From Leucoraja ocellata (Eukaryota), in assembly GCA_036785375.1 (NCBI GenBank), contig JAWMAR010000008.1:6200001-6264000 (forward strand): DNA of 64,000 nucleotides, given 5' to 3'. The position numbers and the translations under genes were made by a program. Under the pieces are notes generated by a model. It did not search any database. It was not told the origin of the DNA and worked only from the letters and a program-made list of their open reading frames with translations. Shown here piece after piece: positions 2,727 to 62,634 of the stretch (position 1 is its first letter; each line of letters starts with the position of its first letter).

Positions 2727-2904
2727 GTGTAAGAAGAAACTGCAGATGCTGGTTTAAACCGAAGATATACAAAAAGCTGTAGTATTTCAGCGGGACAGGC
2801 AGCATCTCTTCAGAAGGGTCTCGACCCGAAACGTCACCCATTCCTTCTCTCCAGAAATGCTGCCTGGCCTGCTGAGTTACTCCAGCATTTTGTGATCTAC
2901 CTTC
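2727..2904. mobile_element. Penelope-type palindromic terminal unit with hammerhead remnant
   Basis: Inverted arms CAGCGGGACAGGCAGCAT / ATGCTGCCTGGCCTGCTG around GAAGGGTCTCGACCCGAAACGTC (2813-2835). Confidence 0.7.
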
Positions 2905-3116
2905 AAGTACATCCTCAGATGTTGTGGGAAACTAGGGAGGAAATTGTGGAGGTCTTTGAGGAGATATTGCCATCTTTTGCCACTAGTGAAGTTCCAGATG
3001 GCTGGAGGGTGGCTGATGTATCATTATTTAATAAGAACAACTAACCCAATATACCAACGATCAGTATGGACAAGGTGGTCTAAGGGGCCTGTTTCATGCT
3101 GTACACCTCCATGACT
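2905..3116 (+). mobile_element. Degraded CR1/HER1 LINE fragment
   Basis: HPQMLWETREEI...EVPDGWRVA-like ORF2 relic joined to a CR1 3' tail (GGGCCTGTTTCATGCTGT). Confidence 0.65.
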
Positions 3117-3247
3117 ACTACAAAACCTCATCACCTGTGTAAATGATCCCTGCTGCGGGAGAAGAGATAAGAGAGAAATATCTTATCTCTTGAGATAAAT
3201 TTAAAAATGTCAGAAAAATATTAAGTATGTTTTTCTTTTTTTCATAG

Positions 3248-4456
3248 GAAGGCATCCTGACGTCATGGATTTTCTACAGTGACAATACGGCAGCACCATT
3301 GACTCTCTACAATGTCAAAGACTACAACCTGACAGTTAGCACACTGAATGATAAAGTCGTCTCTTCTACGCAGGACCCAGTTTGTCCCCTGATAATAGCA
3401 GAAGGTGAAGGATCAGGTGAATTTATCAGAGTGGAACTGGGCATCTGTGAACCCTGTAAAAAGACCAACCGCAAGAGTGTCTTGTTTGTGACACTTGTCA
3501 ATGTGAAGGTTCGCTTTGGGTTTGATGATGATTCAGAAGAAGACCTAGAAAATACCGGTGAAGATTATGCACCTGATGGAGTTCGATTTCAAAGCAATCC
3601 ATTTGGTCCTAAACCAAAAGAGAAAGATCGGTTTGATTTCATGCCAGACACTTCTTCAACTGGTGACCGCGAGGAAAGGGTTATGTGGAAGAGTAGCACA
3701 ACTGTAAAGTCAGCTGTGGAAGAAAGGACTGACTCAAGGGCAGAACCAGGCAAGGGCATTGATGGCATGCAAGAAAATGGAGTACATTTTGATAACACAA
3801 GGATGCCCAGCTTACCTCTTGACATTGATGTCACAGATCTGCCAAAAGATCTCGCAGATCCTGATGATGAGTATGCCCCAACGCCACGGGGTCTAACTGA
3901 TTTGGAAATTGGAATGTATGCACTGTTAGGAGTCTTCTGCCTCGCAATACTGGTTTTTCTAATAAACTGCATTGTATTTGTCCTCAAGTACAGGCACAAA
4001 CGTATTCCCCCAGAGGGTCAAGCCAGCATGGATCACTCTCACCACTGGGTTTTTCTAGGCAATGGACAACCTCTTCGTACCCAGGCTGACCTCTCGCCTC
4101 AACCTGAAAGTCCTGGCAACCCCTTGGAAAATATCCAAACTTGCTGCCACAATGATCATCAGAGCAGTGGCAGCTCACAGACAAGTGTGCAAAGTCAAGT
4201 GCACAGCAGAGCTGATGGATCATCTGGGAGCTCAGTTATGGAACACAGCGAGGATCCACTACACTCTCCCACCTCCAAGCGCAAAAGGGTCAAGTTTACC
4301 ACTTTTGCCACGTTGCCGTCTGAAGAGCTTGGCATAGCTTACAACTGCATACCAATAGCCGATGAGGAAGACATTGAGTGGGTCTGCCAGGATATGGGTC
4401 TCAGAGACCCAGAGGAACTACACAACTACATTCAAAGAATAAAGGAGATTGCCTAG
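3248..4456 (+). CDS. TMEM132E: TMEM132E terminal coding exon (end of last Ig-like domain, stalk, TM helix, cytoplasmic tail)
   Basis: Acceptor TTTTTCTTTTTTTCATAG|GAA at 3247/3248, in frame with ORF 3299-4456. LTDLEIGMYALLGVFCLAILVFLINCIVFVLKYRHKRIPPEGQASMDHSHHWVFLGNGQPLR, SGSSQTSVQSQVH, SPTSKRKRVKFTTF and C-terminal LHNY..RIKEIA* match TMEM132E as I recall it. Upstream exons lie outside the window. Confidence 0.95.
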   Translation, partial: EGILTSWIFYSDNTAAPLTLYNVKDYNLTVSTLNDKVVSSTQDPVCPLIIAEGEGSGEFIRVELGICEPCKKTNRKSVLFVTLVNVKVRFGFDDDSEEDLENTGEDYAPDGVRFQSNPFGPKPKEKDRFDFMPDTSSTGDREERVMWKSSTTVKSAVEERTDSRAEPGKGIDGMQENGVHFDNTRMPSLPLDIDVTDLPKDLADPDDEYAPTPRGLTDLEIGMYALLGVFCLAILVFLINCIVFVLKYRHKRIPPEGQASMDHSHHWVFLGNGQPLRTQADLSPQPESPGNPLENIQTCCHNDHQSSGSSQTSVQSQVHSRADGSSGSSVMEHSEDPLHSPTSKRKRVKFTTFATLPSEELGIAYNCIPIADEEDIEWVCQDMGLRDPEELHNYIQRIKEIA

Positions 4457-7108
4457 TCTGCTGCTGCTTTTCTTTGCTGCATTTATAGCTGCCAGATATT
4501 TGCCACGTATAGTTTTTTGTTTGGTCCACAGAAGGAAGCTGCAGTACGTGGAGACTGGGTGAACATAAAAGTGCTCTAACAATATTTGTGGTCAAATGAG
4601 TACTGGTAATGCTGCAATATTTAAAATAGGTTTGCAGTGAGAAGCTGATCAAACCTTTTGCAAAGAATACTCTTTGCTGAAACACCATTGACAAATCACA
4701 GTTGATGAAAGACAGACTCTATTATAATGAAATAAACATGACTGGTTTAGCACAGGGGCATAGTGTTTGCTCATAATCAAAAGAAGCATGCTGGAATCGC
4801 TCTGTGTAGGTGACGGTGAAATGGGACAACATTGGCATCTTATTTTTAAGACTCCAGTAGGCTGAAAACAACAGAGAGTTGCATATTCTGCACAACAAGG
4901 AGTTGTTTTAAGATGTAAAACAGTCCTTGTAGTTGATAGATATGACAGAACAAGTATGGTAAGACCCTTACCAAATTGAATGCATCAGACAAAACTGGTA
5001 TTGAAACTAAGTGGCAAATGTTGATTTAAAAAATATATATATTTTAATCGCAATTTGAGTCCACAGTCAATTCTGAAAGTTGGCAATGTCTATTTCATTC
5101 ACGTTTCGGTCTCATTATTTGCATTAATAAAAGCTGTTGAAGCAAGAGCATGGCACAAATTGCAGTGTTACTACTGGTTGTGAGAAAGCTGATACATGAA
5201 TGATTAATTAATGTTGAAAAGAAAAGGTTTCTCTGTTTATGGGAAACAAATAATGTGATATTGTTCTCTGTGAAGTGTGATAGCAGCAATCTGATCATTT
5301 TGTCATTGGCCTCATTATATATTCATTTTAATTTAATATGCATATTTATAAAGCAATCTATTGGAATGCTCGAGCAGAAATGTCCAGATATGCTCTTTTC
5401 TAATTAATCACAGCAGGAATCAATTGTGCTCAAATTTAAAACAAAACAAAAATCTTAATTTGCAGGGACTGGGAATCTGTGATTTTATTCAAAAAACAAC
5501 AGTGACACGGTCAAACTGAAAATTATGACTTTCAATGGTTTTTTTAAAATATTTTTTTGAGAAAGCTAGCAGCTATTTTAAATGTGAGAGGCATTGACAG
5601 AAAGCAAACCAAAATCCATTGGCTTTTGTAAATTGCCAAAGGAAAATTTGACTCAAATTGGTCATTGAACATAGAGTATACTTGTGAGGTATTGAAATGA
5701 CCTTCCTAATCAGTGAAACTGCAGCAAGAAGTAATGTGGCGATACCGATGTTGGTTGTAGACCAATAGAATGTGATGTTTGATTCATTAGATCTGCTGTG
5801 AAATGGGAATGTGATGAAAGATGATTATCAGGTTTTGATAAATTAATGATAAACGAAGGAAAACATTTCCACTGTGTACCTATCTTGTTAAATCTCCTGA
5901 AAAAAGCCTGCAAAAGGATATTGCAGGTTTAAACAATCATAGATTCACGGGGATGGGGTGATTTAGGTGTATTTCATCTTGATGGAATGATATCTATATG
6001 TATATATGAATTTCTATACAATTAAACCAAACCACAACGTTAAGAAAGATCCTAGTTAAGTTTCTCTCTGTCTTGCAGCTTTCACTAGGCCTTTAAGTAA
6101 ACAATTTTCATTATAAATTGATATTTCTGATGACTGAAGTGAATTTGAAGCCTCAGTCAGCAGTCAATAAACTTCACAAAAGAAATCCACCAGACAGATA
6201 TTTCTGACTGTATGCTGACTGACAACTCACAATCCTCCTGCTCATTAAAATGAACAGTGAAGGAACAATGGCTGGCAAAATCACACGCCTAAAATCTCAG
6301 TTTAGCTTAACCCAACAGCATGGATAAACTACAACCGTATTCATACAACATTTTAGAACATGGTGCAACCTCATGGCTTAAAATGCACAACCACTTATCA
6401 ATTTAACAATGTTCCTATAATCGTTTTCCAAAAGCATGAATATTGCTCCAATATTGAACCAAAATTTTGACTTCCGTCTTTGGGCAATTATCTTGCAGTT
6501 GCTTCAAGAATGCATTCCAATGATTTTGTAATAACAAAAAGGTCAAGAATACTTCAGCTGTACATTTTATGCACAGTTTTCTGACATTAGTCTGCTGCGC
6601 CCAGCAATTCCCTTCTCCATCATCTTATTCTTCTGCCATCATTGCTAGGTTTTTATAACTCCTACAAATTTTGCCACCTTGCTACTTCCATTCCTGCCTT
6701 TACAAAGATTCATTAAACTTAGCTTTTTAAATGTGCCTTTGACTAACTTTCCTAAATTATCCACCTCTTTCCACTGTGAAGCTCCTTGGGGGTTTTGCTA
6801 TATTTAATGCAAATTCCAGGTTATTATTGCTTGCCTTGAAATTGAAAAATTACAAGGTTTGTGTATAGCACACTATTTATATAATTGTTCCAAATATGGA
6901 GAGATTATGGCGAAATTCAAGGTGTGTTTAACATTTTTGGTTTATAAAGTTCTTGCGACAAGTGCACAAAAGTAATCTTCATCTATAGTGTTTGTCTAGC
7001 ATGATTGAAATTTAGAACTGTAAAGAAAATAATAAAGTTGGAGTAAACATCTAGGCCCTGTTATTACCCAGATGATGCTAGTTAATGCACATTTTACATT
7101 TTCATGTA

Positions 7109-8717
7109 CAGTGCCCTCCATAATGTTTGGGACAAAGACTCATCATTTATTCATTTGCCTCTGTAATCCACAATTTGACATTTGTAATAGAAAAAATAAC
7201 ATGTGGTTAAAGTGCACATTGTCAGATTTAAATAAAAGCCATTTTTATACATTTTTGTTTCAACATGTAGAAATTACAGCAGTGTTTATACATAGTCCCC
7301 CCATTTCAAGGCACCATAATGTTTGGGACACAGCAATGTCATGTAAATGAAAGTAGTCATGTTTAGTATTTTGTTGCATATCCTTTGCATGCAATGACGG
7401 CTTGAAGTCTGCGATTCATGGACATCACCAGTTGCTGGGTGTCTTCTCTGGTGATGCTCTGCCAGGCCTGTATTACAACCATCTTTAGCTTATGCCTGTT
7501 TTGGGGCCTACTTCCCTCCAGTTTTCTCTTCAGCATATACAAGGCATGCTCAATTGGGTTCAGATCGGGTGATTGACTTGCCAACTCAAGAATTTACAAT
7601 TTTTTAGCTTTGAAAAACTCCTTTGTTGCTTTAGCAGTATGTTTGGGATAATTGTCTTGCTGGAGAATGAACCGCTGGCCAATGTGTTTTGAGGCATTTG
7701 TTTGTACTTGAGCAGATAGGGTGTCTATACACTTCAGAATTCATTATGCTATTACCATTAGCAGTTGTATCATCAATGAAGATTAATGAGCCAGTACCTT
7801 CAGCAGCCATACATGCACAGGCCATGACCACAGATGAGGTGATATGCTTTGTATCTTGGGCGGTTCCTTCTCTCCTCCATACTTTGCTCTTGCCATCACT
7901 CTAATCTTCGTCTCATCTGTCCGCAAGACCTTTTTCCTGAACTGTGGTTGCTCTTTTAAGTACTTCTCTGCAACTGTAACCTGGCCATCCTATTTTTGCA
8001 GCTAACCAGTGGTTTGCACCTTGCAGTGTAGCCTCTGTATTTCTGTTCATGAAGTCTTCTGCAGACAGTGTTCATTGACAAATCCACACCTGACTCCAGA
8101 AGAGTATTTCTGATCTGTCGGACTGGTGCTTGGGGATTTTTCTTTATTATGGAGCGAATTCTTCCATCATCAGCTGTTGACGTCTTTCTTGGCCTGCCAG
8201 TCTCTTTGTGATTAGTAGGCTCACCAGTGCTCTCTTTCTTCTTAATGATGTTCCAAACAGTTGATTTTGGTAAGCCTAAGGTTTGGCTGATGTCTAACAA
8301 TTTTATTCTTGTTTCTCAGTCTCATAATGGCTTCTTTGACATTCATTAGCACAACTTTGACAAACAGCAATAAACGTTTCCAAAGGTGATGGAAAAACTG
8401 GAGGAAATACTGAGAGAAATGCTGAAAGCTCTCATATACCTGAATTAAGGAGGCATTTAAACACACCTGGGCAATTACAAACACATGTGAAGCCATATGT
8501 CCCAAACATTATGGTGCCCTGAAATGTGGGACTATGCATAAACACAGCTGTAATATCTACATGATGAAACCAAAATGTATAAAAATACCCTTTAATAAAA
8601 TCTGACAATGTGCACTTTAACCACATGTAATTTTTTCTATTACAAATCTCAAATTGTGGAGTACAGAGACAAATAAATAAAATATGTGTCTTTGTCCCAA
8701 ACATTATGGGGGCACTG
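7109..8717 (-). mobile_element. Full-length Tc1-family (IR/DR type) DNA transposon, 1609 bp
   Basis: TA|CAGTGCCCTCCATAATGTTTGGGACA...TGTCCCAAACATTATGGGGGCACTG|TA. ~220-bp TIRs, each with two CATAATGTTTGGGACA direct repeats. Confidence 0.95.
7363..8360 (-). pseudogene. Frameshifted Tc1 DDE transposase
   Basis: Split ORFs: HTH (ISQTLGLPKSTVWNIIKK), GRPRKT, MVMACACMAAEGTGSLIFID, SQSPDLNPIEH. Several frameshifts. Confidence 0.9.
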
Positions 8718-11625: not shown

Positions 11626-12545
11626 CATGTTCTATCAGGCATCATAGTGTCAGAGTTGGAGCAAGGGCAAGCATAAGTTCTGTCAGCGCTCTGTCCCCTT
11701 CTACAAAAAACCTGAAGATCTCACTGCAAACCACAATGGTTCAGGTGTGGGCTATTCCTCTAAGAAACATGAACTGGCCGTTCGTTCCCAGTCAAGCACC
11801 ACATTTTCTCTTGAACACGTGCTTCAATTTTGCAGCAATTATGTTCATTGGCTTTTGAGTGAAGAATTACATCATTACTCATGTCCAGATAACTCCACGT
11901 ATTATGCACATGCGGATATCTATATTTTTGATGAACTATTGCTTTGATTATAATTATTTACATCCATAATAATTCAGAATATTGATATTTCATGGAATGC
12001 AAAATAGCAGCCAAAGGCAGTTTCCCTGTGATGAATTCCCCCCCAAAAAACTGGAGGACAAAATCAGGTTTATCATTAATGATTGGAAAATAATGTTATG
12101 GGCTCTGGATTAGAAAGCATAGTGCTGAGAATAATTAACACCTTTGATGAAAATGTAACCTAACATCCACAATAAAATGTAGAAAACTAAACCTTAATGC
12201 AAAAAACGGGAAGAAAGTGCATTTCAGATAAAGATGTGCAAAGGACCATTATTAACTTGAAAAAATCAGGTTTAATCAAAGAATTAAATGACAAAATTGA
12301 TCCTCTCCTGAGTTCAAATTAGTTTTGATTGAGGAAAATAAAGGCAGAGCGAACTGTTTCCATCTAGTTATATGCATGTTGTTCAGGAAAGGCTTAAATG
12401 TAAAACATGTGTAACATTTTGACTTCTTGGATTGCTTAAGTGCCCATTGTAAGAAACTAATAGGCCACTTGCTTAAATAATTATCTTCATCAGTTTATTT
12501 TGAATCATGAAATAGAAATAAACTCTCTTGACTTGACTTGACTTG

Positions 12546-12631
12546 GGTCCCAAAGCAAAACGTCCTCTGTCCATTCCCTCCATAGTTAATGCCTGACCCA
12601 CTAAGTTCCTCCAGGACTTTGTGCTTTGCTC
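12546..12631 (+). mobile_element. Degraded Penelope-type terminal unit
   Basis: AAAACGTC...TGCCTGACCCACTAAGTTCCTCCAG, homologous to the other copies. Confidence 0.5.
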
Positions 12632-13030
12632 TGATCCTACAAGGGTTTTCCCTTAACTGTATTAAGATAGAAACACAAAGTTTGCAGTGTTGGGTGTGGT
12701 CATAACGCAGTGCTGGCTGCCAGTCACCCTGGATTATTTCATCATAGTGTATGTTTAGGTATTTCAGTTGGTATTGAGCTTCATGTTTCCTTTGCCAATT
12801 TTGGGATTATCTGAAAAGTAAAATTAGCCCCCTTTGTGAATGAGCTGCAATTATAAACTGGGCATTCACATAGCTCAATGGTACAATTAAATATTTTATT
12901 CCAGTTTCCTTTAGGAATTAGGAACCTGTGTGTGCATCAGCCATTTGCCATGTCTTCTTTAAACGGAGGTGCACAGATACCATAAGTGTAACTAGAGCAC
13001 CTCTATGGAAGGATGAATAAGATGAATAAA

Positions 13031-13290: not shown

Positions 13291-13330
13291 CAGCTCTGTT
13301 CTTATGGCTTCCATTTCTTTAAATGATCTT

Positions 13331-13650
13331 GTGGCACAATGGCACAGCTATTAGTGGCAGAGAGCTAAGTTCAATTCTGACCTCAAATGCTGTCTGTATG
13401 AAGTTTGCACGTTCTCCTGGTGACCATGTGAATTTACTCTGGATGCACTAGTTTCCTCCAACATCTCAAAGGCATGTGGGTAGATAAGTAAACTGGCCAG
13501 TGTAAATTGGCGCGCGTGTGTGGGTGACTAATATAATCTGTTGAGTTAATGAGAATATGGGAAGAATATAAGGGGAGTAATACAGGATTAATGTAAATAT
13601 GTGATTCATGATCAACTTGTGCCGTGGGGTTTTATACATGCTATATCTAT
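13331..13650 (+). mobile_element. Degraded HE1/V-SINE
   Basis: V-domain TGCTGTCTGTATGAAGTTTGCACGTTCTCCTGGTGACC. Confidence 0.65.
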
Positions 13651-17360: not shown

Positions 17361-17845
17361 CAGTGCCATCCATAATGTTTGGGACAAAGTCCCATCATTT
17401 ATTTATTTGCCTCTGCACCCCACAATTTGAGATTTGTAATAGAAAAAAAAATCACATGTGGTTAAAGTGCACATTGTCAGATTTTAATAAATGATATTTT
17501 TATACATTTTGGTTTCACTATGTAGAAATTACAGCAGTGTTTATACTTAGATCCCTCCATTTCAGGGCACCATAATGTTTGGGACACAGCAATGTAAATG
17601 AAAATAGTCATGTTTAGTATTTTGTTGCATATCCTTTGCATGCAATGACTGCTTGAAGTCTGCAATGCACGGACATCACCAGTTGCTGGGTGTCTTATCT
17701 GGTGATGCTCTGCCAGGCCTGTATTGCAGCCATCCTTAGCTTATGCTTGTTTTGGGGGCTAGTCCTCTTCAGTTTTCTCTTCAGCATATAAAAGGTATGC
17801 TCAATTGGGTTCAGATTGGGTGATTGACTTGGCCACTCAAGAATT
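17361..17845 (-). mobile_element. Truncated second copy of the same Tc1 family (one TIR plus transposase C-terminus)
   Basis: Colinear with 7109-~7594; encodes WPSQSPNLNPIEH on the minus strand. Confidence 0.9.
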
Positions 17846-19600: not shown

Positions 19601-19840
19601 TTATATGACAGAAAACTTTTTATTGACCAAGAGTCCTCTGCCTCTCCAGTCAAAGGTCGGCTAATTCAAACCCCTGTAGCCAATGCTGTTAGTTGGGAGC
19701 AGATTGCTGCCTATCAGGAGAACTCGGATGCCTCATGCAGGAGTAGACAGCATCGGGACCTGTCCATTGGTTATGGTTGCTTTTACATGTGTGGATCACA
19801 GCAGTTGTGCAGCATATAACTCATTTTGACTAACTCCCAA

Positions 19841-19910
19841 CCCGAAACGTCACCCATTTTTTCTATCATGAGATGCTGCCTGTCCTGCTGAGTTACTCCA
19901 GCATTTTGTG
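19841..19910 (+). mobile_element. Penelope-type terminal fragment
   Basis: CCCGAAACGTCACCC...GAGATGCTGCCTGTCCTGCTGAGTTACTCCAGCATTTTGTG. Confidence 0.65.
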
Positions 19911-20085
19911 ACTAATCTATTGGAGTTCTTTGAGGATGTATCTACTAGATTACATGAGAGGAAGCAATGGATGTGGTGTATTTGGATTTTAAGAAGGTGT
20001 TCATTAAGCTCCCAGCCAGTAAGTTGGTGAACCAGGGTTAAAGTGCATGGCATTGGTGGATAATATAACAATGGGTTAAGAAATG
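19908..20085 (+). mobile_element. CR1 RT fragment
   Basis: TNLLEFFEDVST...MDVVYLDF-KVF. Confidence 0.75.
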
Positions 20086-21190: not shown

Positions 21191-24139
21191 GCTTTAACTT
21201 GTGACATACACATATGCCCTGAATACCTGTTCCTTATTGCCTCTCACCCACCTCCAAAATCTTTCTGTCCATAGTCCCAACTACACACTGGTCTCGCAAA
21301 CCAGGCCACACACCCAGCCCTTTCTCTAGCCACGTACCTGGCCACATTCCCAGCCCACAAATCCACCCACGTTCCCAACAGCTTCTCTTTTGTGAGTCAT
21401 CTTTTGCCAAAATTCACCAATTCCTTCAATTAAGTTCACCTCAGTCTTTGGGTGATTGAAGAAAAGCGTATTTGAAGATCAAAACTCATGATATTCAGAG
21501 CAAAACTGATCTGTGCCTAATACTGATTTACAATTGGAGATTGAATTGTATAACTATAAATTACCCTCTATAATTCTCTATCCCCAAATATCCATGCTGA
21601 GCCAAAATATATTGGTTTTCATTTGAAATTTTAAACTGACTTGGCCTCAGTAGCGTTTCGATAAAAGTATACTCTACTTGTGAAGAATTGCCTTCTAATA
21701 TCATCGAAGAATGACCAGGCCCTACCTTTAGTGCAGTGCCCACCCACACCATCACTCTCCTACCAGCAAAATCAGTAACTTTCGTATTCGCAATTTATCC
21801 TGTACATCATTAACTTAGAAACACGGACAAATGATTTGACTCTTAACATCTATATAATTGTTCTAAAGAGTGCACACAGGACTTTCCAGGAAAAGCCTTA
21901 AGTAAAACAGGCATCAAACCTGATAAGACTGTTATTTTTGTCTTAATTAGTGCTAATCTAATTAAAAATCCTTGGTTGAATCAATTATACACTGTCTACA
22001 TTACTCAATAAGGTTACTTAAAGACTGACTACATTAATTTAGGAGTACTTAATACTAATGACAAAGAACAGCCAGGAAAGTTTTTCTATACCATTAACTT
22101 ACGTGGATTCATGAGCTCACTTAAACCTGGAACTGATGGAAGATATTCAGTGTATGTATTAGCAACATAACGTGCTGGCTTGAGGGATGATCTAAAATAT
22201 ACTCAGCTATGAAAAGCACCATATAATTTCCAAAAAGATAAATTGGCCGCTTTTTTTATTGATGAGAAGCAAATTGAATAGCACCAAAATAAAAGAGAGA
22301 TTCTCTGCATGAATGATAATGAAACAAATGCAAAAACAAAAAATGGCTGGATGGGTTTGCACAATGGCTCCTCAAGCATCTGAAGGAAAACAGAAAACCC
22401 ATGAGAGTGCCCAATCCCAAGCCGCCGTCCTTGATACTGCAATTCTAAAAAGACAATTGGCTCCAGTAACCAGAGCACAACACTCGCATACCCAATACCA
22501 GATTTGCAAGATATTACCAAATGCACAGGGAAAACAATTCATGGACGTTTCTAAATCTTTCTTGAGAAGGAAAAGGGGAAAAAAAAATTCCGACCAACAC
22601 ATGCACTGTTACACTTTATCTAAAGTGGGCCTCAGCTATGAATGTGCCTGAAAGCCTTAACCCTTGTCTGCAATAAAACATGCATCAAGCTCACACGGAG
22701 TTTATGGTGCTTGTTGACCAGTTTCTTGGCCACCTTTGCAGAGTGAATGGAAAGCATGTACAGTTCCAAAGGATCTTCTTTCTCAAGCAACTAGTCAATT
22801 CCAATGTTTCACGGTGAATCAGCTGAACACCAGGTATTACTTTATCAATAACATCTGTAGCTGTGCTTATTCCTTAGTATTCAAAGTGGAATCATTCATT
22901 CCGACCAAGTGGAATAGTTAAGGATCCTTACTGACAAGTGCTGTGATTGAAGTGTAAACAACAAAAAAATCAATATCAGCGATGTAATTGGCAATCAGCC
23001 TGCTCACAAAGGCTGGAAACTGGGATTGCTTGCCGTACAGCTACATAACAGCAGATTGTGCAGCTGGGTTGCTGTGCTAAATAATCCAACGCTGATTTCT
23101 GAAGAGACTGTTGCCAAGAGCCAGCAGCCTGAGAGACTCTGTGCTGAACAGGTATCTTGGCATATCAGCATTGTCACATGCATAAGTAATGCTAAATGCA
23201 AAGCTGATGGCAAACTCAACAACTCAGCGAGCAAAATATTTTGACACATTCATCTTTATTGACCAATTCTGAAATGCCTATCAGTAGAATCTTGATGCTG
23301 TCTGCACCATGATATGACAAAGGAATAAAGAGCAGACTAATCTGGAAAGAGCCCCATCCATTGATCCATTCCACTCAGGATATGAAGAATCATTAACGCT
23401 CATTTTGCTAAATGAACTAGATTTCTACCTGGTAGCATAGCCTCAATAATAGTACAAGATGTTAGAGTCATACGGCACAGAAACAGGCTCTTGAGACCAC
23501 TGATTCTGTGTTGACAAGCCCAAGGAGCAATTTACAGAGGCCAGTTACCCACGAACCCACGCATCATTAGGACATGGAAGAAAACCAGAGCATCCGGAGG
23601 AAAACTATACAGTCATAAGGAAAACCTGCAGACTCTACACAGACTATACTGAAGTCAGGGCGGAACTCGTAATATCCACAAATGATTTCCAGTTTTGGTC
23701 TCCACAATGGCTTGGGATCAAGGGAGGACCACATCTGTTATGCTATCTCTGAGTGATGTGGGAATTGAGCCCCCGATGGAAGTAAGAGAAGGGAGAAGAT
23801 TGATAGATCACCACACCTTCAGAGAAACAGGTAATGTTGCAGTTCCAGGACATCAAGTTCACTTTTCCCACACAACTTGCACAGCTCTGAAAATTACAAT
23901 CCTTGATGGTGAGAAATGGAAACATCTACATGATCGTGTCCTCTCCAATCTACCATGGCACGTGGACTTCTCAATGATAGTACCTATGAGAGTGATCACA
24001 GTGCTGTTCCTTGAAAGATAAAGTCTCATCTCTATGCCTTGTTGTGTAACGCTATAATTGTGTTAAATGGAATAGACACCAGACTGATTCTGTGGCTCAA
24101 AACTAGTCATTCATGTAGCACAACAAGGACAGATTTCCC

Positions 24140-24600
24140 CTTGTCCTCATCTTTCTCTCCACCAGCCTTCGTATCCAACACATCATCCTACATTTCCGTC
24201 ACTTCTAACGTGATTCTACCACTAAGCACATCTTCCCATTTCCCCTTCTTTCTGCCTTCCACAGAGACTGCTCCTTCTGCAACTTCATGGTTCACTCATC
24301 CCTTCCCACCCAAACCATCCCATTCCCAAGTACTTTTCCGTGCAATCGCAGGAGATGAAACACCTGTTCTTATACCTTCCTCCTTTCCTCCATCCAGAAA
24401 CTCCAACAGTCGTTGCAGGTAAGACAGAGGTTCACATGCACTTCCTCTAACCTCATCTACTGCATCAGGTGTTCGATGTGGACTCCTATCCAAGACCAAG
24501 CACAGACTTGGCGATTGTTTTGCTGAACACTTACGCTCAGTCCACCAAGGTCTACTGGATCACCTGGTTCCAACTACTTTAACTCCCCTTCCCATTCCAA
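24140..24600 (+). mobile_element. Penelope-like element fragment with decayed GIY-YIG endonuclease
   Basis: Reads TFPCNRRR-NTC...QVRQRFTCTSSNLIYCIRC..CGLL...TKHRLGDCFAEHLRSV...NYFNSPSHS, with stops and frameshifts. Confidence 0.85.
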
Positions 24601-26244
24601 AAACAGCCACTGGTTGTTGAGGAACTACTCGAGGCTCTGTCCTAGGCACAATTTGTTCTCAACTCGTAAGCAAATGAAAGAGCTCGTACTTGCATGCAGC
24701 AAGATCGATACAACAAAGAAAACCACTACATCTTATAAGGTTTTGAGCCTTTCCTGCTCCTTTGTTATCGAGGCTAACAAGCAACCACTTGTTAGGAGTG
24801 TTACTTCCAGTTTGCTCCATGTTGTCATTTGCACCACGACACTGTTGCTGTTGTTGTTCAGGCGAACAAGACACCAGTCCAGCCAATTAATGTCCTCAAC
24901 TCGCATCCAGCACCGCAGCAACATAAGGCCTGATCTTCCCAACCCTAGGCCTCACTCTCCTGCACAACTGTACCCCACCTCCACCCCTCCGTCCGCACCA
25001 CTTTATCAGTGGAACCATCATTTTTGGTAGCAGTTGCTAAAATGATGCATGGTGCATGGCTCCCACCAACATCGCTACCCCTTTATAAGACAGCACCAGG
25101 CATCTCCACAGGACCACACTCGAGATGCACAAGCTCGAGATGGAAGGGTGTCATGTGTTGCATTTGCATGGTGTCTGATTGTTTTTAACTCTAACGTACC
25201 TCTTCTCGCCTGAGAAAGGAACAAAATAACCACAAGAAAAAATATTCAAACCGGAGGACGGATTTGGCAGCTAGTAAATCAGGTGCTTTAAAACCATGCA
25301 TGTTTTTTGTCTCTGAAGGATTCAGCATCAGGCTATCTCCCTGCAGGGACAGTGTTGAAATACTGCAGCAGAATATTCCATCAGGGGAGGCAGCAGACAG
25401 CTGTAAGGTACCTCTTGGGAAACAGCCACTGGTCAGGTGGATCACCACTGGTCCTATGTTACTCATCTCAAAACAGCTGGTTCTGAGAAGACAGACAAGA
25501 GCAAAATGATTGTGCTCGAAGGCATCATTGTAATTTACAGAAAGTAGATTAAATAACTGCTTCCATTTGGCAAACATTCTGCAACACTACATCATACAGA
25601 GCAAGGAACATCAGATTCGATCATTATAATTGAACATCAAGTTCGATCAGTTGTCTGTTTAATTAATTGATCTCAGCGAGCTCAGGAAAAATAATCCATT
25701 GGTCAGATTTTGCTTCTCTGTTTCTTCTTGTGCAGTCACCTGCTGAAATGTGTTCATGTTTAAACATCAAATAAGTCCAGGGCTTCCATCACTCAGCTGA
25801 GATGCCAGCCTTTTCGAATAACCTCCCAACTCGTTATGTAATGAATAGCAAGGTTAAAGAGCGCATATTACCTGGAAAATCTTGTAAATCCTCAGGAAAG
25901 AAGAAATTAAAATAAAGGAAAGCTGAAGGAAACTCAACTGAACTCAACTCCTATACTTTATATTTCTAACTCTATCCCCACGCTTCCAGACATCACCACA
26001 ATGCCCCAAGCATAATCCCTCAAACTACATTTAACAATCTGCCGGCAAGCAGCTAGCTAAAATGGAAATAATTTATGGGAACGTCAACTGATTTCAACTG
26101 GTCTCACACTGCCTTAGGGTAGACAAAGGAAAAAATAATCAATTGGTCTTCCAACATTGATTTTCCTGTCTGAGATGAGCATAGCATTAGGTTAAATGGG
26201 TGTACTGATAAGTCGGTATAACTCAGCTTGGAAACAGTATGTGT

Positions 26245-27494: not shown

Positions 27495-27680
27495 ACCCAT
27501 CTGCACTTGTCTTGCTAGCTCTTGTCGCACCGCATCCTCCCACCTCTTTATACTGGCTACCTCCCTCTACTCTTTCAGTCAAGGTGAGGGGTGTCGAACT
27601 GAAACATTAACTGTAACACCCTTCCACAGACGCTGTCTTAACCATTGGGTTCCTCCAGTTGCTCCACTGTTTTTGCTGCA
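27495..27680 (+). mobile_element. Degraded Penelope 3' region
   Basis: TTTCAGTCAAGGTGAGGGGTGTCGAACTGAAAC...GACGCTG...GTTCCTCCAG. Confidence 0.45.
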
Positions 27681-28560: not shown

Positions 28561-28679
28561 GGGGTGGGGGCAGTCTGAGCAATGACTAACTATGCCCATT
28601 ATGCCTGTTATCTTTCAACCAGATTTATTTTATAGCCATTTGGATCCAGTTGCTAAAAGACACAATGTGAATTTTGCAT

Positions 28680-28762
28680 TCGAAACCCTTCTTCACCCAC
28701 TGAGTTTCTCCAGCATTTTTGTCTACCTTCGATTTTCCGGCATCTGCAGTTCCTTCTTAAAC
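28680..28762. mobile_element. Collapsed Penelope-type terminal unit
   Basis: CGAAACCCTTCTTCA joined to CTGAGTTTCTCCAGCATTTTTGTCTACC...GCATCTGCAGTTCCTTCTTAAAC. Confidence 0.6.
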
Positions 28763-37229: not shown

Positions 37230-38810
37230 GGAAGCCGTTGTTATCCCTGGTGACCACATCTGCGGCAAATGTCTGCAGTCCTGGTAACTTTGGCTCAAAG
37301 TGAAGATTTGGGCACTGCATTTGATTTCAAATTAAAGGAAGCAATGAAACTTAGGTTAAACATATCAAAACTGTTCACTCAAGAAGGACAGAAGAGTGCG
37401 ACAATGAGTGGGGCAGGCATAAAGCTGCAGAAAGTAGATTTGGAGAAACCTTGTTAGTCCAACAAATGCAAGGTCCTTGCTGCTTGTTTAGTTAAGAGCT
37501 GAGACGGAAGGGGCGAGGGGGGGGGGGGGGGGGGGGGGCATGACCAATCTGACCACATACTGTGGTACAGGGAGTCATCAAGCTGAGTGAATGAAAAGGG
37601 ATGAATTAGTGATGGGGGGGGGGATAATATACTTAGGGGGAATAAGTACTATTCTCAGCATTTGCTCGCATGTATGAAAGTCAGTATAAAGTGCCTAGGG
37701 CTAGCATTAGGTGTGTTCCCCCAGGTCTCCTCTTGCAGAGGAACTTTAAGTGGAAATTAAAGATCCATTTGTCATGGTCTGCATGGGAGCTGCATAAAAA
37801 AAGTTTAAGACAGAAGTTCTGGTGAAGGAGAATGAGCAATTAGGATCAAAGTTAAAAGCAAAATTGCTGGGGTAATAATCTCTGAATAATAAACTGAGCC
37901 ATGGGCAAATTGGCATAGGGTGAATGAGATCAGAGGGTTGAATGTGTGGTTTATGGAGTGGTGTAGGAAAAGTAGATTTTAATTCATTTGGATCACGTTG
38001 TGGCCACATCACTAGAAACTAGATGTCATGATAGTCCTCAAGAATGAGTGATGAACAGCAGAAAACAATAAAATAACTAGAAAATGATTTAAGGGAAAAG
38101 GACACAAAGTGCTGGAGTAACTCAGCAGGTCAGGCAGCATCTCTGCTGATGTTTCAGGTGGGGAGCCTTCTTCAGACTCCATCTAAAATCCAAATAAGGA
38201 TCCAGAGCCAAAACGTCGCCTATCCATGTTGCCCAGAGATGCTGCCTGACCCTCTGAGTTACTCCAGTACTTTGTGTCCTTTTGGTTATAAACCTGCATC
38301 TTCAGTTCCTTTCTACAATTATGGAGACGGTACAGATGAAGGGAAATTTAGAAAGTTAAAGATAAAGGAAAGTTAATAATAAGGGTAATGAGTAATGATA
38401 ACCAGAGTCCATTAGGAAATGATTTGGGATAGAACATGCAAGTATATTTTCATTTGGAATCAGAGCAGGGATAAACTGTGCAAAGACAAATCTCAAGGTT
38501 CTTCATCTGAATGCATTTTGAATGCCTGCAACATTTACAACAAGGTAAGTGAATTAATGGGACAAATGGAAATAAATGGGTAGCCATTAATAGCCATTAA
38601 CAGAGACATGATTGCAAATTGTCCAAGGTTGGGACCTAAATATTCCAAGATAGTTAACCTTCAGAATAGATCGACAATAAAGAATGAGAATGGCCCTGAT
38701 GGTGAAAAGTAGGACGAAGGCAGGAGGGAGGCAGGAGAGAGGTGATCTTAGCTGTGAAAATCAAGGAATAGAATCTGTCGAGGGTGGAGCTAGGAAAGAT
38801 CAAGGAGATG
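37230..38810 (+). mobile_element. Degraded CR1 5' region (ORF1 and APE endonuclease start)
   Basis: HLNA...NKVSELMGQMEING...AI..T-LQ..QGWDLNIP relic at 38500-38650. The upstream part resembles CR1 ORF1. Confidence 0.55.
38096..38317. mobile_element. Palindromic Penelope-type unit with two head-to-head hammerhead remnants
   Basis: 50-bp inverted arms 38096-38145 / 38234-38283; centre CCTTCTTCAGAC ... AAAACGTCGCC. Confidence 0.75.
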
Positions 38811-41450: not shown

Positions 41451-41539
41451 TCCGATTGTTAATAAGTATTTAAGAAGAAAGCAGTAAGATACACTGGTCA
41501 TTGATCAGGATCAGGAATCTAGACTGCACCTATCTAATC

Positions 41540-41760
41540 AGAGCAAAGAAACAAACTGCTGAAGGAACTCATTGGGTTGAACAGCAGCTGTAGAGGCAAA
41601 GCAATTGTTGATATTCCAAGTCAGTCCTGATGCAGGTTTCTGATGAACCCAAAATATCTATAATTCCTTTCCCTTCAAGGAAGCTGCTTTAACCCACTGA
41701 GTTTCTTCAGCAATTTGGCTTTGCTCCAAAGTACGGCATCTGTAGTTTATTTGCCTCCTT
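41540..41760. mobile_element. Old palindromic Penelope-type unit
   Basis: CTGCTGAAGGAACTCATTGGGTT / AACCCACTGAGTTTCTTCAGCA inverted arms. Confidence 0.55.
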
Positions 41761-48299: not shown

Positions 48300-48932
48300 C
48301 ACTATGGGAAGCTGGATAAGAAATTGCAGGCTGAGATATCCGAATCATCACTAGGCATGGCTGAGATGCCAGAAGACTGAAGGGTGGCTAGTGTTGTAGC
48401 TTTATTTAAGAAGTAACCTGAAGCGTTGATGAGGGCAAAGTCATGGACATTGTCTATATGAACTTCAGCCGGGCTTTTATGAGCCGATAAGCATGGTAGA
48501 CTGTTCTACATCACATGGAATCCAAGAAGAGCTTGCCAACTGGATAGGGAATTGGCTTCATGGAAGGAAGCAGAGGATGATGGTGGAAGGTTGTTTTTTA
48601 GACTGGAGGTCTGTGGTTAGTGGTGTGCCTCAGGGATCGGTGCTGTGCCCATTGCTGCTTGAGGTGCACATCAATGATTTGGATGAGAGTGTAGAAGGCA
48701 TGATTTGTAAGTTTGCAGTTGGCATTAAAGTGGGCGGTATTGTAGATAGTGAAGATGGTTATCAAAAATCACAACAGGATCCTGACCGGTTAGGCAAGTG
48801 GGCTGCAGATTGGTTAACGGAGTTTAATGCAGATCAGTGTGAGGTTTTGCAGTTTGGGAAGTCAAACCAAGGCAGGACCTTCATAGTAGATAAAAGGCCC
48901 TGGGGAACGTTGTAGAGCAGAGGGATCTAGGA
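48300..48932 (+). mobile_element. CR1 RT fragment
   Basis: ORF 48493-48915: WIGNWLHGRKQR...SGVPQGSVL...INDLD...KFA. Confidence 0.9.
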
Positions 48933-48939
48933 GGAGGAG

Positions 48940-50567: not shown

Positions 50568-50673
50568 AAGGTACACAAAAATGCTGGAGAAACTCAGCGG
50601 GTGCAGCAGCATATATGGAGCGAGGGAAATAGGCAACGTTTCGGGCCAAAACCTTTCTTCAGACCTTCTTCAG
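50568..50673 (-). mobile_element. Short Penelope-type unit nested in an old SINE tail
   Basis: Homologous to 55623-55716 in the opposite orientation. Confidence 0.75.
50632..50665 (-). ncRNA. Minimal type I hammerhead ribozyme motif (one stem II mismatch)
   Basis: Minus strand GGU-CUGAAGA-A-AGGUUUUGGCCC-GAAA-CG-UU-GCC. Confidence 0.55.
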
Positions 50674-51209: not shown

Positions 51210-51410
51210 CAACACAAAACAAACAGTTGGAGGAACTCAACGAGCCAGGCAGCATCTGTGGAGGGAAATGGACAATTGGCTTTTAAGATGAAGGGTTCCA
51301 ATCTAAAACATTTGCTGTCCATTTCCCTCCAGAGAAGCTGCCTGACCCGCTGAGTTCCTCCAGCAGTTTGCTTCAGCTCCAGATTCCGACATCGCACTCT
51401 CTTGTGTCTC
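51210..51410. mobile_element. Palindromic Penelope-type unit
   Basis: Inverted TGGAGGAACTCA...CAGGCAGC...TGGAGGGAAATGGACA / TGTCCATTTCCCTCCA...GCTGCCTG...TGAGTTCCTCCA. Confidence 0.7.
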
Positions 51411-53541
51411 TCCCACTGCAGCTCGCTTCTGGCAGTGCACGACCGTGAAGTGGCTTTCCATAATTATGTTCCATTAATGGTGTGTTTTCAAGGCAGTAAG
51501 TTAACTGCAGTTTGGCCTCGTGGGGTGAATAGCTTTTATATTCTCAGATCCTTTTACAACATGAGTGAAGTTGCATTAGGGATCAAAGATCCCATGTGAA
51601 CACAGTTGAGAGGCAGTATATGCCTGCATCAGCTGAAAAGCATGACATTGCATCTAACTCACCTTTATGACCATGCCCCCCCTCATCAATCTATTTCTAC
51701 CTTTATACCCTGTGACTGAAACTTACAGCTCTTGTAGTTGTTCGTCATTTCATTGCACGGATTTCCCCCAAAATATATTTCAGTTCCTTTCGAATCTCTG
51801 CTGGTGTGAAGTTCTCCTTTTGTGATTCTGGACTTCCAATTTCTTTAGAGCAATGTTGTCGATAAAATAATTTGAGCTAACAGGATAAACATTCTGTCAA
51901 TGCTGTCAAAGAACAAATGTTGAAATGCTCAGCAAGTCAGACACCATCTGTTGAGAGATGACACATGACAATATTCTTGCTGCAGACTGTATTTCATCTC
52001 CAAATATTTTTAATCGAGTCTCTGCACATGTAGGTTGCCATGCTGCTTGCTCCCTGCAGCATTTTAGGTTTTAAATTAATTTATTTGAAATCTAAAAAAC
52101 ACGCAGAGATTAATGATCACATCACAAGCTGGTACTCTAACCAACAGTTCTTATCCTCTCATTTCAGGAATGTTCGGAGATACACTGTACAGCTTGTATA
52201 GTCAATATATATCCATGCAAACTAATTTCAGAACTTGGTGATTACTTATTCCTAACATTATTGGGATGCAATTTGGATTTGCAAATCCTGTTAATCATAT
52301 ATATTTTTAGTTTAGGAAAAGGACTGCCATTTTAATAAATGTGGTTAATGCTTTATTAAATATGTCTTAACAAAACAAAATCTGGCAGAAAAATGTCAGT
52401 TGAATGCAGAATGCCAGACATAATTTAATAGTAATTTAATAGTCATTCGCTTGTGTCATCAATAGCAATAATTATTACAGAGACTAATAATTATTAATCT
52501 CTGTAATATAACGGAGACTAATCCTTCGGTGAGTTTAAAGTACTTCAGAATGAGAAAATCCTTTTACAGATGCAAATTCTTCCCTTTCCCTTTTTCAAAT
52601 CAACATTCCTTGTAGAATGATAATACATAATATCAAAGCACTTTCGAAACAAGTAATATTAACAAACACTGGTTCTAAGGGCAAAGCAATCTGACCAAGA
52701 AAAAAATCCTATGGTAACTAATGCTCTTTCACTCTGCAAGAAACCAGTACATCATCAGGAATAACAAGCCATTTCCATTGTAGCAAATTATTCATGTAAT
52801 TTCTGAATTATTCAGTAATTCCCAATAATTACTACATGTAAACCCATTTGATTATAGTATCCTTCAGCTGTGGTCATTGTGATTAATAGCTACTATATGT
52901 TAATTATCTATGTCTAATGTTTCCATTCTCCCAAGGAAACAGAAACACTTTTGCAAATTGAAGGTAATCTCTCATGACAATTTAATCTGAAATGAAATGA
53001 TTAGACTAGCGACACATTAACAAATGTAGTTACTATTGAATTGTGCAAATATTTCAGAAATACAATTGCGAAAGCTGTCTTGGTGTCACATATCTGCTTT
53101 TGAAGTGTCTCCGCCTTAAAGATAACAAAAGGTGTTTTGTAAGATCCTAAAATTGTATTGTTATTTATATTGCATTGTCTTTGTTATTGCCACAAAATAA
53201 AACGTCTTCTTGGTAGACCAGGGAACATCGTTAAAATCGGGTTGAAATCTAAAATGAAAATGGTGTGATGACAGGAGTTGTTTAAATAATTGACAGTGCA
53301 AAAATAAACGACTTTCGGGAACCAAGAATGAGCATTATAAGTCAGCAACTAAAGCACAGTGATTTGTTTCACAAAGCAATTGCAACAAAACCAACAACAA
53401 AAAAAATCTATCAACCATTGAAACAGGAGAATTAAAAAAATAACGGGTTGTGACAATGAACACCTTGAACAGTCAGTCAACCACTGGTAATTTTCGGGCT
53501 GGAAGGAATGGAAGGAATTAACTGCATCTTTCTTAGGTTTT

Positions 53542-53659
53542 GTGTGGGAAGGAACTGCAGATGCTGGTTTAATCCGAAGATGGTCATAAAAAGTTGGAGT
53601 AACTCAGCAGCATCTCTGGCAAGAAGGAATGGGTGAAGTTTCAGGTCGAGACCCTTCTT
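53542..53659 (-). mobile_element. Short Penelope-type unit with TSD
   Basis: TTCTTAGGTTTT duplicated at 53530-53541 and 53655-53666, overlapping the element end. Confidence 0.75.
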
Positions 53660-55622: not shown

Positions 55623-55716
55623 GAAGAAGGGTTTCGGCCCGAAACGTTGCCTATTTCCTTCGCTCCATAGATGCTGCTGCACCCGCTGAGTTTCTCCAGC
55701 TTTTTTGTGTAACCTT
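55623..55716 (+). mobile_element. Short Penelope-type unit nested in a Rex-like tail
   Basis: GAAGAAGGGTTTCGGCCCGAAACGTTGCC...CTGAGTTTCTCCAGC. Confidence 0.75.
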
Positions 55717-57550: not shown

Positions 57551-57788
57551 AGAGCCTGTCCCACTTTCACGACCCAATTCACGACCTCTGCCGAGTTTGC
57601 CCTTGACTCATACTTGCAGCATGGTTGTCACGAGGTCGTAGGAGGTCATAGGTAGGTCGTAGGTAGGTTGTGATGCTAGTCGTAGGTACTTGTGGCATCA
57701 AGTAGGTCGGGGCGTTTTTTCAACATGATGAAAAATATCCACGAGTAAAAAAGGTTGTGAATTAGGTCGTGAAAGTGGGACAGGCCCT
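57551..57788. mobile_element. PIF/Harbinger-type MITE, 238 bp
   Basis: TTA|AGAGCCTGTCCCACTTTCACGACC...GGTCGTGAAAGTGGGACAGGCCCT|TTA. Confidence 0.9.
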
Positions 57789-58394
57789 TTAACAGCCTTG
57801 AAGGGAATAGCATCAGAAGAAAATTGAATTGTTACTCAGACTCAAGCTGGTTACATTGACAGCCTTGGTCTAAATATCCATACATGAACATTTCAGCTCC
57901 TTTATGAAATGTGTGGAATAGTTGAACACTCCAGTCATAAGAGTGAAGATATACCGGTACATAGCGATGCTGTATATGAGCACAAAGAAGCAGTTCCATT
58001 AACTCAAATAGGTTCAGAAGCATGCGGTACATTAGCAACTCTTCTAATGCCACTGAGAACAAAATATATTTCTCTTACTGAAGGATTGCAAAAGGTTTCA
58101 GGATCACTTTAATCTGAAACCCTAAGGAATTACAGAGAGCTACAGATTTTGAATTAAAAAGAAGTCAGGTGAGACGGTCAGTGAGTGCCTTGTCTCGTTG
58201 AAGGATTTGTCTCAGTATTGCAGCTTTGGCACTTTCGCAGGCTGTGCATTGCCTGAAAAGTGTGTTTGCGTGTTGGTTAATGAATGGATTCACTGAAGTT
58301 ATTAAACATGCAGAAACTCACATTTTATCTTGCATGCTGAACTGTATCATCTGTGGATGAGGAGTTTAGTTCAATGCAACGCCTGGGAGCGGGT

Positions 58395-58767
58395 GCCGAA
58401 GAGGTTTATCAGAGTGCACCTGGATTGGTGGTATTAGCAATAAGGAGAGGTTGGACAAACTTGAATTGCTTTGTATGGAGCGTCGGAAGTTGAGTGGAGG
58501 CTAGAATGGTAAGATTTAAGGGAAATTTGCAGGACAAGGTTTTACACAGAGATTGGTGGATGTCTGTAACTCATTGTTGGGGTGACTGTTGAAGCAGGTA
58601 CAATCATGGCATTTAAGAGGCTTTTCGATAAGCACATGAATATGCATGGAATGCAGGGATCTGGATCACATGCAGGTAGTGGAGATTCACTTAGTACATC
58701 TTCAGCACAGGCATTGAGGGCCGAAGGGTCTGTCCCTGTGCTAAATTGTTCAATGTTCTATGTTCTG
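58395..58767 (+). mobile_element. CR1 3' fragment
   Basis: VEAGTIMAFKRLFDKHM; tail GGGCCGAAGGGTCTGTCCCTGTGCT...TTCTATGTTCT. Confidence 0.75.
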
Positions 58768-60764: not shown

Positions 60765-61480
60765 AGGCAAAACCTTCTCACTAATTTGATGAAGTATTTT
60801 GAGAAGCTAACTAAGATGGAACAAACAGTTGAAATTGTGTATATGGACTTTATTAAGTCATTTGACAAACCTGATAGGATGGCCCAGAAGATCCAGACAC
60901 AGGGGATCCAAGACCTAGTGGTTAATTGGTTCCTAAATTGGCTTGGTGATAGGAGGCAGAGGGTAATGGTTGTAAGAAGTCTGTGACCAGTGGTATTGCA
61001 GGGTTAGGTGTCGTGAACTTTGTTTATGTGAAGATAGACACAAAATGCTGGAGTAACTCAGCGGGTCAGGCAGCATCTCTGGAGAGAAGGAATGGGCGAT
61101 GTTTTGGGTCAAGACCCTTCTTCCATGCTGTTTGTGATATTTATTACCTTTGTTATGAATTTCAAAAATATGTTTAGTAAATTTGAAGATGGCGTGGAAT
61201 TTGGTGGTGTTGTGAGTAGAGAGGGAGTCTGCTGCGGCAGGATATAGATCAGATGGAATTGAGAGGTACATTAACGGATGTAATTTAATCCTGACAAGTG
61301 TGAGACGATGCATATAGGAAACTAGAATCGGGGTAGAATATATACTGTAAATGGTATAGAGCTGAGGGATATTGATGAACATAAATAGGATGGTGAAGTG
61401 GGCATGTGGCATACTTGCCTTCATAGGTTGAGGCATAGAATATAAAAGGGACAAATTTGCAAATCATGGTTAGTTCATGG
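60765..61480 (+). mobile_element. CR1 RT fragment with a nested Penelope-type unit (61030-61123, minus)
   Basis: LTNLMKYFE...VYMDFIKSFDK...WFLNWLGDRRQRVMV. Confidence 0.8.
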
Positions 61481-62516
61481 TAAGTTCTGATAGAATCCAA
61501 TAGGGTTCACCTCAGGTTTTGCCAGAGAGTATAAACTATTTTGACTTTGCAGTTCAGAGTTTGAATAGTTATGTATTCACCAGTTGCCAGCGATGTGACT
61601 AATGTAAGTGTGAACAATATGCAGAATGCTGGCAACAGGAGAAATCACAAACATGGTCATGAATCAGCTCATTACCAGGCTATCTGTTTCAGCTCACAAA
61701 CAAACTGGGAGATCTCACGGTACTTTCCGTTTGCCCAAACAGTAATTGTAAGATTTTGCTATTTTTCAATGAGTCAATGGCATTTTAATGTCACATGTAC
61801 CTAGGCACATGAGGAATTCCTTTTTGCATATAATTCACTAATAATCTTACAATATGTAGGCAAAGTACATTAAGTACAAGAGTGTAGGAATCGAAGAGTA
61901 CACTGAAAATATTCAAAAGTCGCCATGTTTCCGACCCTGTTTTGTATTAATCAAGTCGAAAGTTTAAAAAAAATTAGACTCTTATCAGCCATAAACGCTC
62001 CTTGGCCTGGCTAAATCCCAAGTACATCCCAAATGCAATGGGCCATTGCATTGCTCAGCTGTAATTATGTGAATTTAGAAGTGTAAAACTGCAAGCAGGG
62101 AATGAGATTAACAAATTTCAGCTCCTGTGCCTGGTGAAATCTGGCAATTTACTAATTTAATGGCTGGATGCTTTAAACTGAAGGCGCGGTACAAAATAAG
62201 ACAATTATTGTTATCTGAAGAGGAGGGTGAAAGCTGTAACCTTAATTTAACTTGGAAGGCAAATTAAGGATTTTAGCAAATTGGAATGAATGACGGTTGA
62301 GTGTGCATTGAGTGTGCGATGTATAAATGCGACGTGCTTGGCTCCTGTGTGTTTGTCAGTTCCTGATTAACTCCTTTGATGCTACAGGTTCTGTACAAAC
62401 AACATTGCAGGTCATAATTATTCCAAAGGGACGATCCTTACTGTGGGAAAACTCAAGGACTTCAGAACAGTCACAGGGGTCCAGAATACATCTTAACCAG
62501 AAATTAAAATGGTCTT

Positions 62517-62634
62517 GTGTAGGAAAGAACTGCAGAGGATAGACACAAAATGCTGGAGTAACTCAGCGGGACAGACAGCATCTCTGGAGAGAAGGAATGA
62601 GTGATGCTTTGCGTCGAGACTCTTCTTCAGACTG
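62517..62634 (-). mobile_element. Short Penelope-type unit with 11-bp TSD
   Basis: AAAATGGTCTT at 62506-62516 and 62635-62645; the unit starts CAGTCTGAAGA on the minus strand. Confidence 0.8.

Follow-up and report, generated by a model that had tools for sequence, protein, structure and literature searches.

Short hammerhead-bearing units in Leucoraja ocellata are probably stub insertions of the ends of a Neptune-type Penelope-like element

The 64-kb stretch of Leucoraja ocellata DNA analysed here (contig JAWMAR010000008.1 of assembly GCA_036785375.1, positions 6,200,001 to 6,264,000; the window, in what follows) contains a dense set of short related units organised around a minimal hammerhead ribozyme. 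The original prediction, made from these letters, took them for a very abundant and possibly non-autonomous ribozyme-bearing family of Penelope type. This raises the question of what the units are, what copies them, and what part the ribozyme plays in it. Our analysis indicates that they are almost certainly the pseudo-long terminal repeat (pLTR) ends of an autonomous Penelope-like element (PLE) of the Neptune type, and the best overall explanation is probably that they arose as stub insertions of this pLTR. Numbering within the unit takes C3 of the hammerhead core as 0, which places the predicted cut between +27 and +28.

Profile searches of the window confirmed all 13 predicted places as genuine units. 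A profile built from the window copies gave 21 matches at E<1 in the window versus 1 weak match (E 0.99) in the reversed window, and a profile built from genomic copies detected 17 arms at E<1e-6 across the 13 units, 4 of which are head-to-head pairs (Table 1). The density of 13 units per 64 kb, or one per 4.9 kb, is also as predicted. The units fall into two subfamilies: A has the stem II GGGU/ACCC and a cut after GUC, B has GGGU/GCCC and a cut after GUU or GUC.

The origin of the units is revealed by longer copies, which extend upstream through a pyrimidine-rich untranslated region (UTR) of 100-190 nt into the end of an open reading frame (ORF). A genome search with this ORF yielded copies with reverse transcriptase (RT) and GIY-YIG matches. 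The first set of loci, chosen by the linker region, was 5'-truncated and fell short of the element start, while the locus L141 is complete: it consists of a pLTR (2617-2710), a stop-to-stop frame of 1241 aa (1217 aa from the first ATG) and a second pLTR (6551-6643). With E 8e-5 for RVT_1 and 0.012 for GIY-YIG, the Pfam matches of the L141 protein stay below the cut-offs; the same order of domains, also below the cut-offs, is found in L091, and GIY-YIG of L094 scores above its cut-off. A zinc-finger-like linker C-x4-C-x2-C lies between the RT and the endonuclease in L141-L143. The unit flanks the ORF on both sides in L141, L143 and the tandem L153, as pLTRs from partial tandems do, and in 19 of 20 long loci it is found about 120 nt past the stop codon. 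The long copies are 92-99% identical to each other, the ORF end lies upstream in 32 of 92 distinct intact-core copies, and ORF-linked counterparts exist for both subfamilies. Because such young full-length copies are linked to the ORF and one unit of the window is identical over 91 nt to the L141 pLTR (Table 1), the units are best regarded as ends of an autonomous element. The Penelope origin that had been proposed is thereby supported, whereas the notion of a distinct non-autonomous family is not supported. Pfam gave no match for two short ORF fragments of L032, the PDB sequence search gave none for the 1217-aa protein at E<=0.01, and NCBIfam returned for it one weak match to a group I intron endonuclease (E 0.15).

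The element shares with the Neptune clade, as this is described in PMC8557442, the RT, the C-x(2-5)-C-x2-C linker, the C-terminal GIY-YIG, the partial tandems, an inverted 5'-truncated copy and a tail of 30-40 bp; it differs in the ORF of the L141 type, which has 1217 aa and a long proline-rich region before the RT. The Neptune assignment is drawn from the linker motif and should be read as provisional, since this motif is given for both Neptune and Nematis elements (PMC8557442). The proline-rich region itself (within L141:2780-6430) spans about 350 aa, has short internal repeats of variable number and lies between an N-terminal part of about 160 aa and the RT region. The window also holds a decayed fragment of an older PLE ORF (24122-24619, plus strand) with the linker and GIY-YIG, 51% identical to the L141 protein (E 2e-37) and with no pLTR match after it.

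Counts in the assembly searched (3.44 Gb) support the great abundance that had been claimed for the units. Exact matches to the 41-nt subfamily-A core number 3,020 (control 0), 89,153 genomic copies retain an intact core of the form CUGAAGA-A-stem II-GAAACGU (control 0), and a loose form of the core gives 173,934 matches versus 859 for the reversed pattern. Many loci come in two copies that share their flanks and lie on one contig (L001/L002, L009/L010, L023/L024, L050/L052). Duplicated haplotypes are therefore likely present in the assembly, and the genomic counts are possibly too high, segmental duplication being the other reading of the doubled loci. The roughly 89,000-174,000 intact cores compare with about 4,000 in the coelacanth and about 9,000 in Xenopus as reported in PMC4209133, where the search methods differ from ours. 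A sample made up of one 10-kb stretch from each of the contigs C1-C80, always at the same coordinate (80 stretches, 800 kb), contains 396 arms at E<0.01 (reversed control 0), which occupy 36,468 of the 800,000 bases (about 4.6%) and include 42 intact cores; scaled to the genome, this corresponds to about 1.7 million arms.

How the units were inserted can be read from their ends. At E<1e-5 the sample holds 359 arms, of which 340 were analysed and 19 dropped for lying near stretch ends or lacking an overlapping alignment. The 3' ends fall into two clusters, near +93 and +130, as would fit the optional tail of 30-40 bp known from PLEs (PMC8557442, PMC3846280) and the two priming sites of the Anolis element (PMC11167929), and a head-to-head neighbour is present for 136 of the 340 arms. 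The outer ends share a word of at least 7 nt in 12 of 39 sampled pairs, compared with 3.9% of shuffled pairs, and three solo units of the window have target-site duplications of 11-12 bp. Therefore we are dealing with single insertions and not with leftovers of recombination. Of 30 copies reaching past the tail, 27 end at +187..+299, inside the start of the ORF, and thus the pLTR-ORF junction was used as template. The Poseidon element PAc of Anolis (Frangieh et al., 2024; PMC11167929) likewise has two 3' ends about 36 nt apart and shows no sign of a cleaved-RNA template; it differs in that its ORF starts inside the hammerhead, while here the first ATG comes only past the tail, about 165 nt downstream of C3. 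The stubs likely form when the protein of the element, working on uncleaved RNA of the element, primes reverse transcription internally, about 95 or 130 nt past the hammerhead core. The reaction would halt early, most often at the boundary just before C3, the putative transcription start. Internal priming combined with extension of both target strands would yield the head-to-head pairs, if the Anolis element (PMC11167929) is a guide.

One head-to-head pair, with the same diagnostic changes in L161, L213, L214, L224 and L225, lies inside a larger GC-rich repeat that occurs in 5 of the 80 sampled stretches; this pair was amplified as cargo of that repeat.

It might be asked whether the stubs are rather a self-propagating non-autonomous family, either SINE-like (short interspersed element) or retrozyme-like, which descends from short masters and possibly spreads via ribozyme-cut circular RNA. 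The stubs do far outnumber the bodies (396 arms versus 66 protein matches, the latter in 28 of the 80 stretches), they share end points and carry their own target-site duplications, and pLTR-derived tandem retrozymes have been reported in vertebrates including one chondrichthyan (bioRxiv 10.64898/2026.07.22.740005). These non-long terminal repeat retrozymes resemble the stubs in being short, hammerhead-bearing and pLTR-derived, with many monomers. However, they are defined by tandem units with intact hammerheads, whereas the window units are broken and stand solo, dispersed or head-to-head; no tandem units each with an intact hammerhead occur within the 64-kb window, a genome-wide search for them not having been made. 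Additionally, the ORF-linked counterparts of both subfamilies speak against short masters, the stub ends are not at the cut site, the 5' flanks of the stubs are unrelated to each other, and the one pair that does recur does so within a larger shared repeat. We thus consider self-propagation very unlikely and production of the stubs by the protein of the parent element very probable. The stubs, in which the hammerhead would then be a passenger, are unlikely to copy themselves.

The 5' ends of the same 340 arms speak on the question of cleavage: 99 start at -5..-1, 33 at -60..-6 and 5 at +26..+30, with 1 at +28. Among the 204 copies without an inverted neighbour, 64 start at -6..0, and the flanks of these 64 have background composition, with a UTR-like (pyrimidine-rich) flank in only 4; therefore most of the starts in the pile-up are real. 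A simulation of the aligner with the UTR known gave no pile-up (17/300 versus 17.4 expected). The 100 copies of the young subfamily B that were listed first behave similarly: 44 start at -7..0 and 56 carry UTR (hand count). In a listing of 100 such copies 97 run through the cut site, 2 start there (one flank counted twice) and 1 starts at +24. None of the sequencing runs listed with the element is from RNA. Contigs from four runs of presumed kind cannot reveal starts or cleavage; the commonest loose end listed for them is at C3 of L084, where a mismatch at -1 favours such stops. Since -5..-1 is where the 5' ends accumulate and the cut site has hardly any (1/340), the retrotransposed RNA, judged from these ends, is mostly uncleaved, and cleaved RNA is at most a minor template. 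This agrees with the in vitro result on the Anolis element that cleavage is unnecessary for insertion: ribozyme mutants left insertion unaffected there and no reads ended at the cut site (PMC11167929). A 5' pile-up at the core is absent from the description of PAc in the parts consulted (PMC11167929).

That the boundary before C3 is the transcription start is a reading we hold tentatively, with doubt and confidence nearly in balance. The motif TCAGTCT fits the initiator consensus. An internal promoter and a transcription start inside the pLTR are described for Penelope of D. virilis (PMC2377424), and the pLTR of a rotifer PLE carries the initiator-like TCACT (PMC3846280). It is possible, if somewhat doubtful, that in the commonest insertion only the opening 95-135 nt of the uncleaved mRNA were copied, but copied in full, from the two internal priming sites as far as an initiator that lies three bases upstream of the core. 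If so, over a million stubs would map the start site and the priming sites of a Neptune element in vivo, each head-to-head pair would consist of two such cDNAs with their ends joined, and the ribozyme would be switched off in the templates, where its stem I has 2 bp. Several results weigh against such an interpretation. The aligner by itself piles ends at -6..0 if the upstream UTR is unknown to it (59/300 versus 17 expected), an artefact that the flank-composition test and the subfamily B listing address, but not for every copy. The ends of the pile-up spread across six bases and not one, none of 8 full-body copies starts at the boundary, and among the 13 junction copies reaching C3 only 3 stop there. 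There is no clear surplus of cap-derived G at these ends (23/100 versus about 28 expected by hand count; 6/12 in a second test, p 0.09). Genome-wide, a small excess of starts is found at the cut site (382, 246 and 162 at +28, +29 and +30, of about 87,700); by hand count, palindromic junctions or short deletions account for about half of the 100 cases listed at +28.

The lack of a clear cap G would fit a different account of the same stubs, in which the pile-up marks junctions or stalling at an interrupted palindrome, TCAG-T-CTGA, whose centre is at -1. There, either two cDNAs or a couple of RNAs would pair with each other, or the RT would leave the protein-bound hammerhead, and short microhomologies would spread the ends. 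Pairs joined through this palindrome are indeed seen, cofolding predicts that two RNAs pair at it, the ends centre near -1/-2 once chance matches are allowed for, and palindromes at the 5' ends of pLTRs are described in rotifer PLEs (PMC3846280). However, the pile-up is equally strong in the copies without an inverted arm (the 64/204 mentioned above), and the one-base loop cannot form within a single strand. We regard the palindrome as a plausible but doubtful cause. The boundary could also be a 3' splice site, if a pyrimidine-rich UTR ending in CAG were spliced off and stem I changed thereby: a pyrimidine tract and CAG directly precede UCUGAAGA in all subfamilies, and an intron of D. virilis ending at helix I is a precedent (PMC4209133). 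Splicing is improbable nevertheless, since no shared upstream exon exists (the flanks are of background composition), none of the 15 joints shown out of 125 (contigs from related runs) matches CAG/UCUGAAGA splicing, and use of the donor-like site at the stop codon would not make stem I any longer.

The hammerhead itself is of a known kind. Minimal hammerheads of metazoan PLEs, including fish Neptune elements, were already described in 2014 (Cervera and de la Pena, 2014; PMC4209133), and what is new is this member of the family. Our literature search returned no paper describing the family in skates or sharks or a 5' pile-up at the core, subscription papers, Repbase and Dfam being outside this search; shark or skate terms are likewise absent from the two supplement files of PMC4209133 that were searched. 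The units and the elements of that paper are alike in the type-I core, the extra nucleotide after A9, the G10.1-C11.1 pair, the palindromic 15.2-16.2 and the position in the pLTR, and also in occurring mostly as single dispersed copies tied to truncated PLEs, with nearby pairs on opposite strands. The predicted core CUGAAGA...GAAACGU was right, and the minimal type-I hammerhead with an extra nucleotide after A9 and a palindromic ACGU in place of stem III is present in the element and in the 89,153 intact genomic cores. The bases before C3 had been misjudged: they are (U/C)CAGU in the element and not (C/G)(A/G)GU, the GGU form being derived from flanking DNA. In both subfamilies, therefore, stem I comprises 2 contiguous pairs, short of 4-5 bp. 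Stem II is 4 bp long; the stems of Schistosoma have 7-8 (II) and 4-5 bp (I), and D. virilis has a helix I of 2 bp (PMC4209133). The ACGU self-duplex is predicted at -3.1 to -4.1 kcal/mol.

It is fair to ask whether this likeness is due to chance or vestigial, with no catalytic role even in the master elements. None of the 12 matches (E<=10) in an Rfam scan of the window belongs to the hammerhead family, and the short stem I fits a vestige too. Nearest-neighbour folding, which leaves out tertiary contacts and protein, favours a competing hairpin: the predicted probability of stem II is <=0.01 in 11 of 12 folds and 0.24 in one, and the ribozyme-like fold is calculated to lie 3.5-9.4 kcal/mol above the best one. 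The expected covariation of stem II was not observed inside this genome either, and it is the only one of the four traits listed in PMC4209133 that is missing. At the pair 10.3-11.3 we count 89,153 G-C, 3,181 A.C, 2,693 G.U and 187 A-U versus 96 A-U expected if the changes were independent, and this excess could be explained by mixed copy ages, leaving no compensatory change beyond decay. Among 118 subfamily-A copies there are at most 2 double changes per stem II pair, pair-breaking changes are as common as pair-keeping ones, and the stem II difference between the subfamilies consists of one-sided U-A to U-G changes only. The covariation test has little power, because the copies descend from few masters. 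In dead copies the per-site conservation of core bases is 0.075 versus a median of 0.119 (subfamily A) and 0.040 versus 0.029 (subfamily B), the core sites being mostly A. The decay of the stubs looks neutral.

Against a vestige stands that all conserved core bases, the extra nucleotide, G10.1-C11.1 and the palindrome fit the traits given in PMC4209133, that the Anolis motif cleaves only with protein (PMC11167929), and that the core is unchanged between subfamilies whose UTRs diverged strongly. The last of these suggests that the core is under constraint in the master elements, so far as sequence comparison can tell. We find a purely chance or vestigial likeness unlikely. The masters would keep the hammerhead, but its cleavage would be weak and would require either a dimer or the protein of the element.

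No stub of the window retains a complete hammerhead. CUGAnGA, the four stem II pairs and GAAACGU occur together in 0 of the 17 arms, and thus the claim that every copy here has a core defect stands, with part of these defects due to 5' truncation rather than to decay, as in the unit at 55623, which is otherwise 100% identical to the young element (Table 1). Naive motif counts would overstate the number of working ribozymes. The value of the system as a resource is in a young element with open ORFs combined with a very large set of insertion ends, which makes the role of PLE hammerheads and the origin of pLTRs and inverted ends testable.

Table 1. Units of the pLTR in the 64-kb window (positions relative to C3 carry a sign)
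Unit	Position	Strand	Remarks
Head-to-head pLTR stubs, subfamily A	2726..2917	.	minus arm 2726-2813, about +46 to long tail end; plus arm 2810-2902, CUGAAGA damaged
Old pLTR stub	12545..12633	+	start inside stem II; about 70% identity
pLTR stub A	19837..19915	+	start inside stem II; 7-bp repeat at both ends
Old pLTR stub	27586..27661	+	about 63% identity
pLTR stub B without hammerhead	28688..28760	+	start about +53; long tail; 11-bp target-site duplication at 28670/28766
Head-to-head pair, subfamily A	38080..38317	.	minus arm: CUGAAGA kept, stem II broken, internal deletion
Old head-to-head pair	41524..41748	.	64-69% identity
pLTR stub B	50568..50664	-	94% identity; start -2; closest to intact hammerhead, C3 at 50662; G10.1 is A, which breaks 10.1-11.1
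Old head-to-head pair	51219..51381	.	73-78% identity; its hairpin underlies two sub-threshold Rfam microRNA matches
pLTR stub A	53541..53659	-	start +3; long tail; 12-bp target-site duplication at 53530/53655
Young pLTR stub B	55623..55715	+	55624-55714 (91 nt) exactly as L141 3' pLTR; core truncated, no C3-U4; ends at short 3' end
pLTR stub A	61031..61123	-	start +2; G12 and G16.2 lost through CpG-type change
pLTR stub A	62515..62635	-	start -4; long tail; stem II and GAAA damaged; 11-bp target-site duplication at 62506/62635

The window has further features. An open frame of 402 aa on the plus strand (3248-4456) matches the sixth Ig domain (E 7e-21) and the C-terminus (E 7e-33) of TMEM132 in Pfam and is likely the last exon of the gene; the pair at 2726-2917 lies about 330 nt upstream of it. 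At 416-2140 a GC-rich repeat is duplicated with a spacing of about 700 bp, each copy forming a near-perfect hairpin with arms of 60 bp (542-664 and 1245-1367); the hairpin arm weakly resembles the pLTR, and the repeat has no Pfam match. A second dispersed family is found at 13352, 27153, 28490, 32365, 42456, 46924 and 62818, and probably resembles the HE1/V-SINE of sharks and rays. Finally, the regions 48433-48915, 7115-8712 and 17370-17845 contain an RT fragment of the long interspersed element type (RVT_1, E 4e-4) together with other repeated or inverted fragments.

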